Positions 3,070 to 61,970 of a DNA stretch of 64,000 bases are shown here, piece after piece. A program made the translations under genes and the position numbers. Source of the stretch: an uncultured bacterium (GTDB lineage Bacteria; UBA8481); NCBI GenBank assembly GCA_964499705.1, contig CAZCME010000024.1:1-64000 (forward strand), read 5' to 3'. The notes under the pieces are model-generated. The model was not told where the DNA came from, searched no databases, and saw only the letters and a program-made list of their open reading frames with translations. Positions within the stretch are counted from its first letter, which is position 1, and each line of letters starts with the position of its first letter.

Positions 3070-3923
3070 AACCCTTCGCCTCACCGCTCGACGCTTCCAT
3101 GCAACTTGCGCTCGCCCTCCTGGCCATCATCTTTCTCCTGGCGCTCTTTGCTCCTGTCCTCACCCCCTACCCTGCCTCCGGCGAAACCGCTCCGACCATG
3201 AGCGCCGCCCTGGAGATGCGCCATCTTCCTCCGTCCCTCGCACACCCGTTCGGAACGGACGAACTGGGGCGCGACGTCTTCGCCCGTTCGCTGTACGGCA
3301 CCCGCATTTCCCTGGCGGTCGGTCTCGCCGCGCGGCTCTCCGCCATCATCATCGGCGGGCTCGTCGGAGCGGCGGCCGGATACTACAGCGGCAGGGTGGA
3401 CGCCATTCTTTCGCGCATCATGGAGATTATGCTGGCGTTTCCATCGCTCCTGCTGGCGATCGCCATCGGCGTCGCGCTCGGCCCCGGCCTGAGAACGATC
3501 GTCATCGCCATCGTCTTCGTCTCCTGGGTCGACGTCGCGGTTCTCATTCGCGCGGTCGCTGCAAGCGTCGCGAAACGCGATTTCGTCGCGGCGGCACGGG
3601 CCATCGGCGACACCGACCTGCGCATCCTCTTTCGCCAGATTCTCCCTAACTGCGCCTCCGCGCTTATCGTCTCGTTCTCCTTCGGAATCGCCTCCTCGGT
3701 CATGTATGAAGCGAGCCTTTCGTTCCTGGGCCTCGGAGCGTCGGCGGGATCTCCTGATCTTCCGACATGGGGATGGATGATCTACACGGCGGAGTATCAC
3801 CTCGCGGCCGCGCCATGGGCCGCCTTCGGACCGTGCCTGCTGCTCGTCATGACCGTGCTGGGATGGAACCTGCTGGGCGATTGCCTGCGGGACTGGTTCG
3901 ACGTGAAAGCGGAGCTGACATGA
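3066..3923 (+). CDS. ABC transporter permease (DppC/OppC-like)
   Basis: HPFGTDELGRD, EASLSFLGLG, NLLGD.LRD; ATGA overlap. Confidence 0.92.
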   Translation: MKPFASPLDASMQLALALLAIIFLLALFAPVLTPYPASGETAPTMSAALEMRHLPPSLAHPFGTDELGRDVFARSLYGTRISLAVGLAARLSAIIIGGLVGAAAGYYSGRVDAILSRIMEIMLAFPSLLLAIAIGVALGPGLRTIVIAIVFVSWVDVAVLIRAVAASVAKRDFVAAARAIGDTDLRILFRQILPNCASALIVSFSFGIASSVMYEASLSFLGLGASAGSPDLPTWGWMIYTAEYHLAAAPWAAFGPCLLLVMTVLGWNLLGDCLRDWFDVKAELT

Positions 3924-4651
3924 GCGCGTTCCTCCTCGCGATCGCGCTCCTGGCGCAGTCATCCGAATCGGCGCCACCCTCTCCCCTCGTGGATACCGTA
4001 TCCGTTCCCGCGTCCGCGACGAGGCTGGCCGCGGAGATCGCCATCAAGAGCGCGGAGGAAGAACTGGCCGGCCTGTCAACGCGAAGTCCCCTGCTGGAAA
4101 AAGTTCTCGATCAGGCCAGGTCCGCTTTCAGCGAAGGGCGATACGACGATGCGATCGGATACGCCAGGCGCGCGCGTGTCTCCGCCGGCCGGCGAGGCCG
4201 CGAAGCCGCAAAGACGACGGCTCCCGCCTCCCCGGTGACCGCGATCATGTACGAAGCGATCGAGCGCCTGCTGGCCGCGGAGAATCACCGCATGAGCGAT
4301 GCCCGTGTCGTGACGGCGAGGGAACTCGTGACCGCGGCGGAAGCATCCCTGGCCGCGAATAACGTCACCCAGGCCGACCAGCTCTCCCGCCGCGCGATCA
4401 TGATTCTCTCCACGCTGCCTCTTGCCGATGTCCGCGCCGAGACGACCGTCCTTCTCATCGACCCGAATGAAGCCACGGCCCTGGAGCTTTTAAAAGTTCC
4501 GGGCATGACGACGGACATGACCCGAAATCTCATCTGGTTCCGCCGCCATATCGGACCGCTCCGGACGATCGAGGAGCTGCGCTACGTTCCGGGCTTCTCG
4601 CGTGAATACCTGCCGACCGCACGAGCGTATATGCGGATCCGCAATTCATGA
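3920..4651 (+). CDS. Secreted protein with a helical N-region and a C-terminal ComEA-like helix-hairpin-helix domain
   Basis: Signal peptide; IDPNEATALELLKVPGM...GPLRTIEELRYVPGF; ATGA overlap. Confidence 0.7.
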   Translation: MSAFLLAIALLAQSSESAPPSPLVDTVSVPASATRLAAEIAIKSAEEELAGLSTRSPLLEKVLDQARSAFSEGRYDDAIGYARRARVSAGRRGREAAKTTAPASPVTAIMYEAIERLLAAENHRMSDARVVTARELVTAAEASLAANNVTQADQLSRRAIMILSTLPLADVRAETTVLLIDPNEATALELLKVPGMTTDMTRNLIWFRRHIGPLRTIEELRYVPGFSREYLPTARAYMRIRNS

Positions 4652-17084: not shown

Positions 17085-17158
17085 TCGGGCTGGCGGGATT
17101 TGAACCCACGACCCCTTCCACCCCAAGGAAGTGCGCTACCGGGCTGCGCTACAGCCCG
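17085..17158 (-). tRNA. tRNA-Pro(GGG), CCA not encoded
   Basis: CGGGCTG acceptor stem, CTTCC-TTGGGGT-GGAAG anticodon arm, GGTTCAAATCC T arm; followed by CGA. Confidence 0.95.
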
Positions 17159-17863: not shown

Positions 17864-17920
17864 GTAATCCCTGTGTTTTTACTCCTCGACAGCAGAGGTG
17901 TCAACAGGAAAAGGTGGAAT

Positions 17921-19200
17921 CAGAACTTCCCCATCCACAAAACCTGAAACCACGAACCACACGAAAAACACGAAAATCATGGGAAGAGGCGTCGCTTTAT
18001 GGATGCGTTTGAGGAGAACACCGGTTGATGGGGAGAATCCATGGCCCGTTGACCAGATCTGTGAGCACGTGCCTTGAACGGTTTCAACAGGCTGGGCGGC
18101 GTGCCGAAGAGGGGTGTTTCCCGACTTTCAGACTTGTGCTTTAATCATCCGTGAAGAACGCAGGAGTTGTTCGAGCAAGTGCCTTGCGAGGTGGCGAAGC
18201 GTTATCTTCGCTTTCCTCCAGCGCTTTTCAAGCTCGTTCCACTTCTCGTGCAAGAAGAGAAGCAGCGAGTTGAAGCCGATGGCCAGGAGAAAGACCAGGC
18301 GGAGGCTCGCTGCTTCATCTTTTACATAGCCGTGTTTGGAACTGCAAAGCGAATTGAAGAGCTTGAAGCCGTTGTTCTCGATCGACCACCGAAGGTGTCC
18401 AAGTTCCCGAAGTTCCAACGCCGTCAAATCATCCCGTGAGGTCACGACAAAAAAAGGTTTCCGTTTCTCCTGTGGCGATGGATGTTTCCGTGATCATGGC
18501 GACTCGCAGTAATCGTTCGACTCCTACAAAGGAGAATCCCTTTTGCACAACGCGCTCAATCAAGGTGGCTGATGTTTTCAGCTCGTGCCCTGCGCCGGGT
18601 GACGGTTCGAAATCCACCAGTGTCCTGTTCGCATCGTTCCGGACCGCCTGAAACGCGCTCATGAGCTGCTTGTTGAGCGACGTTCCATCCACGAGACCCA
18701 CGCGCAACGGGACGCCCGCTTTCAAGGCGATACGTTGACGGATCCTTCTCAAAGACACGGCGATTGATTCCGCGAAGTTCGTCCAGGGATAATTCCTTGA
18801 TGACTCGGATCAGATGCGTATCCGATACGGACTCGTCGAAATATCGTCCCGCGTCGCCTCGGAGTCGAAGATCGATATTCAAAAAACTGCGCGCGCCCGC
18901 CAAAGGCAGAAGCATCACACTGCCGACGATGGTCTCCAGTCGAATTCGAGGTTTCCTACGCGGATCCGTGAGACCATTGGTCGGATCAATTTAGTTCCAC
19001 AAAAAGCCATTAAAGGCTGCCGTATAAGTTGCCACGTTCGCTCCTCCGTAGATGCTGCGTAAGTGATGTAAAAAGAAAAGAGAGAAGAGAGAAAAGAAAA
19101 CCCTCCGCGACCGCGGACTCTATTTTATCCCATCGAAAGGCATATTTTCGTGTGGTTCGTGTGGTTCGTGGTTAAAGGTTCTTCAGTTGGGGAACTTCTG
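17921..19200 (-). mobile_element. Decayed insertion sequence, 1280 bp, with terminal IRs and an 8-bp target-site duplication
   Basis: Ends CAGAACTTCCCCA / TGGGGAACTTCTG (12/13 inverted match); GGTGGAAT at 17913-17920 and 19201-19208; imperfect IR extends about 57 bp; encloses a transposase remnant. Confidence 0.88.
18128..19035 (-). pseudogene. DDE transposase pseudogene (IS4/ISAs1-like)
   Basis: GGAGGAG RBS + GTG 19035; in-frame TAA 18991-18993; frameshifts near 18752 and at A7 18449-18455; LTDPR, VGLVDGT, LRWSIENNGFK motifs; middle catalytic Asp region apparently missing. Confidence 0.8.
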
Positions 19201-19233
19201 GGTGGAATTACTCAGGCTGAAGGATGCCGCGCT

Positions 19234-20241
19234 TCAGCCCCGGAACTCATCCTTCAAAGCCCGCGCCATCAGTCCCTCCAGCTCCCGCCTCGGATCCGCT
19301 CCCTCGAAGAGAACGCGCACGACGGCGGACGTGATGGGCGTTTCGATTCCCACCGACTTCGCCCATCGATCGACGATGCGCGATGTCTCCACACCCTCGG
19401 CCACCATCCCCAGCTCCGCGAGGATCTCCTCGATCTTCCTCCCGCGCGCCAGCTCGCAGCCGACGCGGACATTCCTGGAATGAGCACTCACGCACGTCGT
19501 GATGAGATCTCCGATCCCCGACAATCCCGCGAACGTCTTCTCGTCCGCGCCCGCCGCCACGCCGAATCGCGTGATCTCCGCGACGCCGCGCGTGATGAGC
19601 GCGCCGAGCGCGTTGTCGCCGGCTCCCAGTCCCTTCGCGATTCCGGCCGCGATGGCGATGGGATTTTTCAGCGTGCCGCCGAGCTCGACGCCGACGAGGT
19701 CATCGGAAGTGTAGAGGCGGAGCGTCCTCGTGGAGAGAACATCCCGGAGCAATCCGCGGGAGGCGCCGGCGACGACGAGCGTCGTCGGGAGCCCGCGCCC
19801 CACTTCTTCCGCGTGGCTCGGGCCGGAGATCGTCGCCACGCGGTCCGCGCCGGTGTCTCCCAGTTCCGAGGCCATGACCTGCGTCATGCGATACGGCTTT
19901 CCCTCCCGGAATTCCAGGCCTTTGGCGGCGGAGATGACGACGGCGTTTCGCGCGATGAATGGAGCGAGCGTACGAATCGTCCCGCGCATGTGCTTCGACG
20001 GCACCGCGCATACAACCGCGGACGCGTTGTCGAGCGCCGCTCCCGGATCCGACTCGATGCGGAGATCATCCGGAATGCCGACACCGGGAAGGAGCCTGCG
20101 ATTTTCGCGCGCGGAGCGCAATTCCGCGGCGCGTTCCGGAGTGCGCGCCCAGAGCATCACGTTCTTCTCCGCGCGATGCCATGCGATCGCCAGGGCCGTT
20201 CCCCAGCCGCCCGTTCCGAGAATCACGATCTTCTCGTTCAC
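19234..20241 (-). CDS. gpsA: NAD(P)H-dependent glycerol-3-phosphate dehydrogenase
   Basis: GTGGWGTALA, SGPSHAEEV, GVELGGTLKN, GLSGIGDLITTC, SRN. Confidence 0.96.
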   Translation of the reverse strand: MNEKIVILGTGGWGTALAIAWHRAEKNVMLWARTPERAAELRSARENRRLLPGVGIPDDLRIESDPGAALDNASAVVCAVPSKHMRGTIRTLAPFIARNAVVISAAKGLEFREGKPYRMTQVMASELGDTGADRVATISGPSHAEEVGRGLPTTLVVAGASRGLLRDVLSTRTLRLYTSDDLVGVELGGTLKNPIAIAAGIAKGLGAGDNALGALITRGVAEITRFGVAAGADEKTFAGLSGIGDLITTCVSAHSRNVRVGCELARGRKIEEILAELGMVAEGVETSRIVDRWAKSVGIETPITSAVVRVLFEGADPRRELEGLMARALKDEFRG

Positions 20242-25664: not shown

Positions 25665-25765
25665 CGTCGTCTCACTCTCTCATTATGCAAGGGATAGATC
25701 CGGTTAAAGCGTTCCGAGTCCGTGGAGTCATAATATGAAAGCGCACCGCAAGCAAGAAAAAAGAA

Positions 25766-25890
25766 GGGGGACATTCTCCCACATTCCAACATTGGCATCG
25801 CAAGAGTTACAAGTTTTACTAAATGGAGTGAACGCGCATGGGTCACCAACTCCATTATTCTGAATGTTGGAATGTTGGAGAATGTCCCCC
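25766..25890. repeat. 125-bp element bounded by a 28-bp inverted repeat (MITE/REP-like)
   Basis: GGGGGACATTCTCCCACATTCCAACATT (25766-25793) vs 25863-25890, one mismatch; inner AATGGAGT/ACTCCATT pair. Confidence 0.8.
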
Positions 25891-25902
25891 TAATATCCGA
25901 GG

Positions 25903-27360
25903 ATGCAGCGTCTTCCTCATCAGGGCCGTCTCTTTCTTTCGCTATGGCTCGTCCTCGTCTTCTTCGGAGATCCGCTGCTGGAGATCAACACGGTCCGCTA
26001 CCTCTTTCTCTCCCGCGCGGTGGCGGAAGACAGGTCCTTCATGGTTGACCGCTTCGCGCACTCTTCGAAAGGCGATCTCGCGGTTTCCGACGGGCATTAT
26101 TATTCCGGCTCATTGCCGGGAATCGGGTTGATGCTCTCGCCGGTCGCGGCCCTGGCGCATGGCTCCCGGGATACCGCTCCCTTCCGGCCCAATCTCTGGC
26201 TTCAGATCCTCTCGCTCATCCTCTTCAACGCGCCCGCGGCCGCGCTTTCGGCCGTCCTCCTCGGACAGGTTCTCGTCGCCTTCGGAAATACCCCGTCACG
26301 ATCCTTCCTGCTGGCCGTCACGGCCGTATTGGGAACCCACCTTTTCTTCTTCACATCGAAGCTGTCGGATTACCCGATCGTGACGCTCCTGGAACTCATC
26401 ATCATCCGCGCCGTGATGAGCGCGCGGGTCCTCGAAAGGAAATCGCTTCTTCTTCTCATCGGAGGCTCCCTCGGCATCATCGCCACCGTCAATAATCTCC
26501 CTGCGGCTCTCATGGTGCTTCTGCTGCTGTTCATGTTCCCGCTCCGGCCCGGCACGGAATTCATCCGCCGCTGGTTTTTCATTATTCTCGGAGCAGCCCC
26601 CTGCGTGATCGCGCGGTCGCTCTATCTGAAGCAATGCTTCGGGTCCGCGCTCATCGATCCGCTGGCCTACTCCGCCGCGAAAATATCCGTCGTCGACATG
26701 GCGCGCGAGGGATCCGTTCTGGCGCGGATCATCGCGGAAGCTCCGCGCGCGCTCTTCGACATCACGTTCGGACCGGTCGGGCTCTTCCTCTTCGCTCCCG
26801 TCTTCCTGCTTCTCCTGCTGCCGATCATCGATCGTTCGCAAGGCCAGAGCGCGCTCCACGTCAGCTGGCGCAAGTGCATTCTCCTCCTCGCGCTTCTCAA
26901 TGCGCTCGCGCATTGCCTCCTCATCGGAGGCATCTGGCGGGGCGGCGCTTCATGGGGACCGCGCTACATGCTCTACAGTTCCACGCTCCTCTTCATTCCC
27001 ATGGCGTATTTCGCCCGCGGCATCCGCGACCGATCGCTCGCCCTCCTCGCGGCCGTCTCGGTCTTCATCAATTGGATCGGAGTCCAGTACGGATATAACG
27101 ACAGCCTGTTGGACGAGCTGGGACTTTTTCTCCTCGGCGGTCCCACGACTCCGGCCTTCAAGCTCATGTGGCTCCACTGGGCCATCGTACCTTCGCCGGA
27201 ACGGATCGCGCTCGTGATGGAGGAGACTCCGCGCATCGGGCACTATTACGCCTTCACGCATCCGACTCCGGTGGTCCTGTATGCGACTCTCGCATTGCTG
27301 CTGATCCTCGTCTGGCTGCCGATCTGTTCGCGATTTCTCAGACGCGACCGCCCGCTGTAA
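25903..27360 (+). CDS. Polytopic membrane protein, probable GT-C fold glycosyltransferase
   Basis: About 11-12 hydrophobic segments; loop DLAVSDGHYYSGSLPG; late WRGGASWGPRY motif. Confidence 0.6.
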   Translation: MQRLPHQGRLFLSLWLVLVFFGDPLLEINTVRYLFLSRAVAEDRSFMVDRFAHSSKGDLAVSDGHYYSGSLPGIGLMLSPVAALAHGSRDTAPFRPNLWLQILSLILFNAPAAALSAVLLGQVLVAFGNTPSRSFLLAVTAVLGTHLFFFTSKLSDYPIVTLLELIIIRAVMSARVLERKSLLLLIGGSLGIIATVNNLPAALMVLLLLFMFPLRPGTEFIRRWFFIILGAAPCVIARSLYLKQCFGSALIDPLAYSAAKISVVDMAREGSVLARIIAEAPRALFDITFGPVGLFLFAPVFLLLLLPIIDRSQGQSALHVSWRKCILLLALLNALAHCLLIGGIWRGGASWGPRYMLYSSTLLFIPMAYFARGIRDRSLALLAAVSVFINWIGVQYGYNDSLLDELGLFLLGGPTTPAFKLMWLHWAIVPSPERIALVMEETPRIGHYYAFTHPTPVVLYATLALLLILVWLPICSRFLRRDRPL

Positions 27361-46006: not shown

Positions 46007-46089
46007 TAACCACGAAGGCACGAAGACACAAAAAAAGGATTTTAAAAATATTTTTTGTATTTCTTCGTGTCTTAGTGTCTTCGTGGTTA
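46007..46089. repeat. Intergenic inverted repeat of 8-mer units (CACGAAGR) around an AT-rich spacer
   Basis: TAACCACGAAGGCACGAAGACACAAA ... TTCGTGTCTTAGTGTCTTCGTGGTTA. Confidence 0.85.
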
Positions 46090-61885: not shown

Positions 61886-61892
61886 CAATATT

Positions 61893-61952
61893 TTAACCAC
61901 GAACCACACGAACATCTTAAAATATTTGTTTTTTCGTGTGGTTCGTGGTTAA
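61893..61952. repeat. Perfect 20-bp inverted repeat of 9-mer units (MITE-like), matching the IS subterminal repeat
   Basis: TTAACCACGAACCACACGAA-20nt-TTCGTGTGGTTCGTGGTTAA. Confidence 0.9.
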
Positions 61953-61970
61953 TATTTTTAGGAGGCATGT

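Follow-up and report, generated by a model that had tools for sequence, protein, structure and literature searches.

A recently inactivated insertion sequence with repeat arrays inside its ends, and two tip-less palindromes that share the array motif

The stretch of DNA analyzed here, hereafter the window, comprises 64 kb of contig CAZCME010000024.1 (positions 1 to 64,000) from an uncultured bacterium of the UBA8481 lineage. In the gap between the gpsA and hup genes it contains an insertion sequence (IS) of 1280 bp (17921-19200), of which the transposase gene is disrupted and the ends are built in two parts, namely a short tip and, further inside, an array of three short repeated units. The core of these arrays is found again in two stand-alone palindromes of the same window, designated M1 and M2, which lack the tips of the IS. 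In most respects the element is an ordinary decayed IS of the DDE type. Its unusual aspects are the uncurated clade to which its transposase belongs, the architecture of its ends, and the link to the two tip-less palindromes.

Delimitation and decay of the IS

The IS is delimited by an exact 8-bp target duplication, GGTGGAAT. Its left copy (17913-17920) and right copy (19201-19208), to which no strand is assigned, directly abut the ends of the IS and are the only two copies of this sequence in the window. A repeat search returned the terminal inverted repeat as one continuous stretch of 57 nt with 82% identity, the left arm being located at 17921-17977 on the plus strand and the right arm at 19144-19200 on the minus strand. 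The outermost 13 bp of these arms, the tips, read CAGAACTTCCCCA on the left (17921-17933) and CAGAAGTTCCCCA on the right (reverse complement of 19188-19200), and are matched at 12 of 13 positions. A degenerate pattern describing the tips was matched without mismatches at the two ends of the IS only. Each tip is followed by a poorly matched spacer of 14 bp, in which 7 of the 14 positions agree between left and right, and then by the array. The arrays are 30 bp long, begin 27 nt inside each end (17948-17977 on the plus strand and 19144-19173 on the minus strand) and are matched at 28 of 30 positions. Both have the order AACCACGAA-CCACACGAA-(AA/CC)ACACGAA-AAT, and they differ solely in having AA or CC at the bracketed position. 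The left array reads AACCACGAA CCACACGAA AAACACGAA AAT, with CACGAA units starting at 17951, 17960 and 17969, and each of the two arrays consists of three such units at a spacing of 9 bp. The repeats of the array are beyond chance: the array 18-mer AACCACGAACCACACGAA has five matches with at most 3 mismatches in the window, where 0.01 would be expected, and the pattern CACGAA-N3-CACGAA has seven, against 0.38 expected. The GC content of the IS is 52%, versus 61% for the window as a whole.

The transposase gene is present on the minus strand as a pseudogene (18128-19035) with a GTG start codon at 19033-19035, an AGGAG sequence six nt upstream of this start, and a stop codon at 18128-18130. Its lesions were scored against the intact relative P0001 (381 aa), to which the window copy is 92% identical over 305 alignable residues. 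All of them are given here for the minus strand. Codon 15 is a premature TAA (18991-18993), where both P0001 and a second relative, P0002, have Glu. A first +1 frameshift occurs after the residues RLESGR (~18708-18714), and an in-frame deletion of 240 bp with its junction at ~18536/18537 has led to the loss of P0001 residues ~167-246, including the catalytic D177. A second +1 frameshift (18449-18455) falls among seven consecutive T (on the plus strand, seven A), and this one could be a sequencing error since it lies in a homopolymer run. A preliminary description of this DNA had reported a fully delimited, decayed IS with one stop, two frameshifts and a central deletion in its transposase gene. 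The comparison with P0001 yields the same count of lesions, while the exact duplication abutting the ends, the 57-nt inverted repeat and the disrupted gene bear out both the delimitation and the decay. Indeed, all that had been stated on the duplication, the tips, the arrays and the lesions held when the coordinates and matches were rechecked.

Of the positions without variation among the intact relatives P0001-P0005, 134 are covered by the window copy, and it differs at only 2 of these, one of which is the GTG start codon and perhaps no lesion. Because so few conserved positions have changed, the transposase gene was disabled recently. The predicted size of the intact IS is 1280 - 2 + 240 = 1518 bp. 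The contig that encodes P0002 (91% identical) measures 1522 bp, which would fit an intact IS as judged from that size alone. It is near certain that the element is an IS and that it has decayed, and we regard it as a non-autonomous copy, inactivated recently, of an IS that would measure ~1518 bp when intact. No second transposase copy was detected in the 64-kb window, all other tblastn matches having E-values of at least 0.29.

Some further features within and next to the IS were observed. A hairpin with 8-nt arms (GGCTGAAG and CTTCAGCC; 19215-19239) spans the gpsA stop codon (19234-19236), and the insertion point of the IS is located 14 nt past this hairpin and 57 bp upstream of the hup start. 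Since the IS sits between the gpsA hairpin and the start of hup, it cuts hup off from gpsA read-through. Between the right array and the transposase start there is a 31-nt run consisting only of purines on the plus strand (19070-19100), which corresponds to a pyrimidine tract on the sense strand of the transposase gene, and next to it a small palindrome, TCCGCGACCGCGGA (19104-19117). On the opposite side, a non-coding stretch of ~150 bp (17978-18127), which is long for an IS and has no Rfam match, separates the transposase stop codon from the left array. A promoter and terminator scan of the IS identified no minus-strand promoter in its right end.

The transposase clade and its relatives

Pieces of the pseudogene gave nothing useful when compared to Pfam and NCBIfam, the best matches being NF033592 (E 0.0054) and DDE_Tnp_1 (E 0.12). 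A C-terminal piece of 105 aa retrieved five intact proteins of 379-383 aa, the best of them 93% identical. In a word-indexed protein search, 10 proteins were found at E<=1e-10, all from metagenome sources, with lengths of 379-403 aa for the intact ones. These close relatives are unnamed, and the sole label among them is 'hypothetical protein' on P0157, the most distant of the 10 matches. An exhaustive HMMER search of 1.84 billion representatives yielded 281 clusters at E<=1e-3, of which 166 remained at the stricter threshold of E<=1e-10 and 43 at that of E<=1e-30. A set of 72,556 plasmids contained no DNA match to the IS and one weak protein match (24% identity). A 59-aa frame crossing the left end of the IS, used as a query for the ends of other copies, gave no match. 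The search for intact copies that had been suggested at the outset led to intact relatives in metagenomes and was negative within the window.

In an alignment of 36 full-length family members, the residues D116, D177 and E299 are invariant (36/36). The second spacer of this DDE triad is long, with 121-122 residues that are modelled as beta strands, and the residues around the catalytic Glu follow the pattern H-x-R-W-x-[IV]-E-N-xx-F-[KR]-x8-K. For the IS4 family, De Palmenaer, Siguier and Mahillon (2008, PMC2266710) give Y-(2)-R-(3)-E-(6)-K as the defining signature. The clade has the Arg of this YREK signature at E-4 in 36 of 36 members, but the Tyr at E-7 and the Lys at E+7 in none. When matches to NCBIfam models were counted at E<=1e-3 among the 36 members, the IS4_1 model NF033592 was matched by 26 of them (best E 3e-11), the highest score being 43 bits where the cut-off is 115, so that the clade differs from the IS4 family both in the missing Tyr and Lys and in the model score. 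IS1380 was matched by 10 members, IS701_3 by 8, IS1634 by 5 and IS4_2 (NF033591) by 3, and all scores for IS-family models remained under the curated cut-offs. The ISAs1 model (NF033564, cut-off 70 bits) was matched by none of the 36 at this threshold, P0004 scoring 16.3 bits. In the intact relatives Pfam recognized DDE_Tnp_1 alone, at or near threshold. The PF13808 domain was absent from P0001-P0005; in some neighbouring Atlas clusters it is present in 20-31% of the members.

A profile search of PDB sequences gave no meaningful match, and the relation of the clade to Tn5 is visible by fold only. An AlphaFold model built from the alignment (pLDDT 91.5) has the Tn5 transposase as its five best PDB matches (E 2e-9 to 1.3e-8, TM 0.50-0.58), followed by the Tn5 inhibitor protein. 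In hhalign comparisons, the family profile was aligned weakly with E. coli YhhI, an H-repeat protein of the ISAs1 type (27.5% probability, E 6.5e-4), over 328 collinear columns that span the D, D and IEN motifs, and with the IS4 protein InsG in a likewise collinear and weak match (9.2% probability, E 3.5e-3). Judging from the modelled fold and these alignments, the transposase appears to be a Tn5-fold DDE enzyme at about the same distance from ISAs1 as from IS4 proper. The family looks like a rare IS4/ISAs1-related clade that is uncurated as judged by the NCBIfam models tested. The earlier proposal of an unclassified IS4/ISAs1-like group is therefore supported as far as these tests reached, that is, by the Tn5-like fold, the NCBIfam scores below cut-off, the incomplete YREK signature and the weak matches to YhhI and InsG.

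To find relatives together with their DNA ends, GTDB species genomes were scanned with six family sequences, and three loci were confirmed from 25 candidate stretches (L001, L002 and L003). All three are distant, with 29-33% identity. L001 and L002 are two copies in one metagenome-assembled genome of the Myxococcaceae that have ~1670 bp in common at 84%. Their end sequences are CCAGGGATTGC and CCAGGAATTGC, and both copies end in CCAGGGATT. Within the left end (L001 152-210, L002 106-165), nt 33-51 hold three CCAGGA(A) units in tandem, each nearly a copy of the tip CCAGGGA, and within the right ends (near 1775-1819 and 1733-1777, respectively) the tip motif recurs in inverted form at nt 33-43 and makes a hairpin with the tip. 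Because these subterminal motifs copy the tip of the IS, the transposase is indicated as their reader. The flanks of the two copies contain degenerate direct repeats of ~8 bp which, read by eye, match at 6/8 (the left boundary being shifted by 1 nt and a 7-bp core matching at 6/7) and 5/8. In L003, which belongs to the Bipolaricaulota, the inverted repeats (CATAGGGATTCCTAA and CATACGGATTCCTAA) are 15 bp long and the ends show no symmetric arrays. All three IS types examined start with CAG or CAT, and in two of them motifs that are repeated or resemble the tip lie ~30-55 nt inside the tips. Directly beside the L003 IS, a two-ORF (open reading frame) element is present on the opposite strand (3330-4507); from its sequence it looks like an IS3-type OrfA/OrfB pair, and the locus like an IS cluster.

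Each of the established groups resembles the window IS in some respects and differs from it in others. With IS50/Tn5 and the IS4 family it shares the best fold match, a DDE triad with a long second spacer, and a single ORF in intact members. The end of Tn5 is ~19 bp long, and the title of PDB entry 4dm0 specifies a 20-mer outside end. In contrast, the inverted repeat of the window IS measures 57 bp and includes an inner array. The protein of the clade is also ~100 aa shorter than the Tn5 transposase. The ends of the window IS start with 5'-CA (CAGAA), as do those of the IS4 family, and its 8-bp duplication falls inside the range of 7-13 bp given for IS4 subgroups in Table 1 of PMC2266710. The same table assigns duplications of 4-6 bp to IS701, ISH3 and IS1634, the 'emerging families' split from IS4, as opposed to 8 bp in the window IS; these families are alike in their incomplete YREK signature and in the weak IS701_3 and IS1634 matches. 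ISAs1, represented by YhhI, is alike in protein size (378 aa), and the hhalign match to it is collinear but weak. The ISAs1 family has CAGGG ends and duplications of 8-10 bp, with which the CAGGG ends of L001 and L002 and the degenerate ~8-bp repeats in their flanks would agree. The window IS, however, has an 8-bp duplication together with CAGAA rather than CAGGG ends, and the clade is unlike ISAs1 in the absence of PF13808 from P0001-P0005 and in the NCBIfam count of 0/36. No clear terminal repeat was found around E. coli yhhI.

Two palindromes that carry the array module

A scan of the window for inverted repeats of short range brought up both palindromes. M1 (61895-61950, no strand) is a palindrome of 56 bp with perfect 18-bp arms, which match units one and two of the IS array without a difference. 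It takes up the space that separates an atpH-like gene from a CDGSH-type gene, and it is flanked on both sides by AATATTTT (61887-61894 and 61951-61958). M2 (46008-46088, no strand) measures 81 bp and sits between nuoI-like and nuoJ-like genes. Its arms start with TAACCACGAA and contain three CACGAA-like units at a spacing of 8 bp, and it has an AT-rich loop similar to the one in M1. There are four exact copies of the array 18-mer, two in the IS and two in M1, and all six window matches of (T/A)AACCACGAA fall in the IS ends, M1 or M2. Likewise, clusters of CACGAA units were found in the IS ends, M1 and M2, and nowhere else in the 64 kb. Since the array core recurs in palindromes that have no tips, the arrays are not private to the IS and represent a portable module. 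The GC contents of M1 (37.5%) and M2 (33%) are to be compared with 61% for the window. When folded as RNA, M1 reaches -34.6 kcal/mol (z = -8.3) and M2 -38.7 kcal/mol (z = -7.0). Neither of them matches an RNA family, an Rfam search over the whole window having returned tRNA only.

The IS tips CAGAASTTCCCCA are missing from both M1 and M2, and a tip search gave no further good copy in the window. Neither palindrome is therefore a simple deletion derivative of the IS. The flanks of M1 are matched at 8/8 positions and have the length of the IS duplication, but they can also be read as an extension of the palindrome that matches at 6/8. No 8-bp flanking repeat is present at M2. A 6-bp repeat, CATGAT, was considered as a target duplication of M2 and rejected, because its right copy is displaced by 10 GC-rich nt and a match with free offset is not significant. 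M1 and M2 resemble MITEs (miniature transposable elements with inverted repeats), repetitive extragenic palindromic (REP) sequences and BIMEs (interspersed mosaic elements of bacteria) in that they are short, palindromic and AT-rich, are located in intergenic gaps of operons, and have arms related to an IS. However, a classical MITE has the tips of its parent IS and a target duplication, whereas the arms of M1 and M2 consist of the inner module only, and as to a duplication M1 is ambiguous and M2 has none. REPs, on the other hand, are described as usually GC-rich and linked to Y1 transposases (REP-associated tyrosine transposases, RAYTs).

An unrelated palindrome of 127 bp (25765-25891) is located just upstream of the ORF at 25903-27360. 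Its arms of 29 nt are 97% identical, and its build is similar to that of M1 and M2 in that a terminal block, AGGGGGACATTCT, is followed by two tandem CC(C/A)ACATT units. The RNA fold of this palindrome has -60.7 kcal/mol (z = -7.8), and it may represent another MITE-like family. Homology of its terminal block to the IS tip was rejected: 9 of 13 positions match, but by eye the orientation relative to the end is opposite. The sole Rfam match in the window is a tRNA gene on the minus strand (17085-17158), which adjoins a MerR-family gene and is located ~760 bp from the IS.

Possible roles of the arrays

The array module most likely consists of accessory transposase-binding sites, a predicted role to which we assign about even odds; the preliminary description had likewise put forward transposase binding, which is plausible. 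From the Tn5-like fold and the analogy with Tn5 and Tn10, the IS would be expected to move by cut-and-paste. Staggered cuts 8 bp apart in the target, between the terminator-like hairpin of gpsA and hup, would have created the GGTGGAAT duplication. The 13-bp tip starting with 5'-CAG would be the site of cleavage and of the primary transposase contact, and the inner module, 28-57 nt from the tip, would provide three CACGAA units for the binding of further transposase subunits or of their N-terminal helical domain. By analogy with the repeated sites of IS21, Mu and Tn7, such accessory sites may help to pair the two ends of the IS. M1 and M2 would then be miniature relatives that retain the binding module alone. 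Taken as a whole, this account of a dead and young IS with bipartite ends, accessory transposase sites in its arrays and M1 and M2 as miniature relatives seems to us just as likely to be right as to be wrong.

Ends with repeated sites are established for other elements, and the IR/DR (inverted repeat/direct repeat) ends of Sleeping Beauty are one example. We know of no IS4-type element with this end architecture; a limited full-text search also found none, which is weak evidence. In PMC10122671, the ends of IS21 are described as repeated units (L1/L2 and R1/R2), of which IstA needs two complete ones, and the ends of Mu and Tn7 as having several copies of the transposase site each. The window IS is similar to these systems in its short motifs repeated inside both ends in inverted orientation, and the role proposed in that text is the assembly of a multi-subunit synaptic complex. 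It is different in that the transposases of IS21, Mu, Tn7 and Sleeping Beauty are of the Mu/retroviral-integrase or Tc1 type and not of the Tn5 type, and in that the IS21 repeats are 23 bp apart compared to 9 bp in the window IS.

The accessory-site account agrees with the subterminal tip copies in L001 and L002, with the module common to the IS, M1 and M2, and with the AT-richness of all three. A number of observations weigh against it. M1 and M2 are without CAGAASTTCCCCA tips, and it is not obvious that they would be cut by the same active site. An 8-bp flanking repeat is absent from M2, and the flanks of M1 are ambiguous with an extension of the palindrome. The units are spaced 9 bp apart in the IS and M1 and 8 bp apart in M2, and a spacing of 9 bp sets successive units on different faces of the helix. 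Furthermore, L003 has 15-bp inverted repeats only, so that arrays are not a family-wide trait, and the unit CACGAAC bears a weak likeness to the tip CAGAAC.

Alternatively, the arrays could be binding sites for a host protein. M1 and M2 would in this case be REP/BIME-like or mRNA-stabilizing palindromes of the host, and the IS ends would carry half-sites in order to recruit the host factor. Host proteins are indeed used by other elements, as IS10 and IS1 use IHF and the outside end of IS50 uses DnaA. That the module occurs without tips at two places, where it fills the gap between two genes that share their orientation and belong to a highly expressed operon (atpH/CDGSH in one case, nuoI/nuoJ in the other), is what would be expected of host sites, and the same can be said of the strong hairpins formed by M1 and M2, of the missing target duplication at M2, and of the presence of two palindromes in 64 kb, which suggests a multi-copy family. 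Nevertheless, we consider host sites unlikely, if still worth serious attention. The 18/18 identity between the M1 arms and the IS arrays favors common descent over convergence, as M2 shows that the motif tolerates change. Moreover, palindromes with 33-37.5% GC in a window with 61% GC look like imported DNA, they match no Rfam family, and the subterminal repeats in the Myxococcaceae copy the tip of the IS itself. A more far-reaching version of the accessory-site account, which we regard as rather doubtful, is that the arrays are a portable module that the clade can use in two ways, either as accessory sites in IS ends or as the ends of tip-less palindromes that are moved or bound by the same enzyme; a Tn5-type transposase would then seed REP-like hairpins in atp and nuo operons.

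It seems improbable that the arrays are functionless, that is, tandem repeats produced by slippage within an inverted repeat of unusual length, M1 and M2 being side products of gene conversion or recombination that involved the IS ends. Tandem 9-mers are easily made by slippage, the third units differ (AA versus CC), and the number and spacing of the units vary in M1 and M2. However, the match of 28/30 in the array compared to 7/14 in the spacer suggests a constraint on the array and not on the whole arm, and the arrays have equal positions and orientations at both ends. Little credence is likewise given to mobilization in trans, which the preliminary description had put forward and according to which the dead copy has kept its ends and its duplication because it is still being moved by an intact one. 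In its favor, both ends are present next to an exact target duplication, metagenomes contain intact relatives, and trans-mobilized cassettes with IS231-type ends (MIC231) are listed among the references of PMC2266710. Yet there is no intact copy in the window and, with changes at 2 of 134 conserved positions, one would in any case expect no change in the ~130 bp that make up the ends and the duplication. The exact duplication argues that there has been no move or erosion since insertion, and it is silent on later mobilization. The ends are intact because the copy is young, as judged by the few substitutions in 915 bp of pseudogene, and mobilization in trans is not needed to explain them. Finally, an inner transposase element with TTAACCACGAA ends nested in a small palindromic element with CAGAASTTCCCCA tips, of which only the outer one made the GGTGGAAT duplication, is very improbable: (T)TAACCACGAA can be a discrete boundary, as in M1 and M2, and excision of 17950-19171 plus one flank leaves the palindromic centre AACCT-TTAA-AGGTT, but the inner unit has unlike 4-bp flanks (GAAA and TTAA) and no 8-bp duplication, the relatives end in CCAGGGATT or CATAGGGATT, which start with CAG/CAT like the outer tip, and have degenerate ~8-bp repeats in their flanks in the Myxococcaceae, and the 1522-bp contig of P0002 is nearer to the 1518 bp given by the outer boundaries than to the ~1464 bp given by the inner ones.

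With its 281 clusters, the clade falls outside the IS-family models tested, and annotation pipelines would consequently label its members just 'transposase' or 'hypothetical'. The bipartite ends of 57 bp with triple repeats are unusual for a Tn5-type enzyme and provide a simple system in which to consider the use of accessory sites. The occurrence of the module in tip-less palindromes of the atp and nuo operons is a lead on intergenic palindromes that arise from, or are borrowed by, mobile elements. If it is true that the clade moves or binds M1 and M2, this would represent a route from IS ends to host-wide palindromic repeats, which have so far been tied mainly to Y1 (RAYT) transposases.

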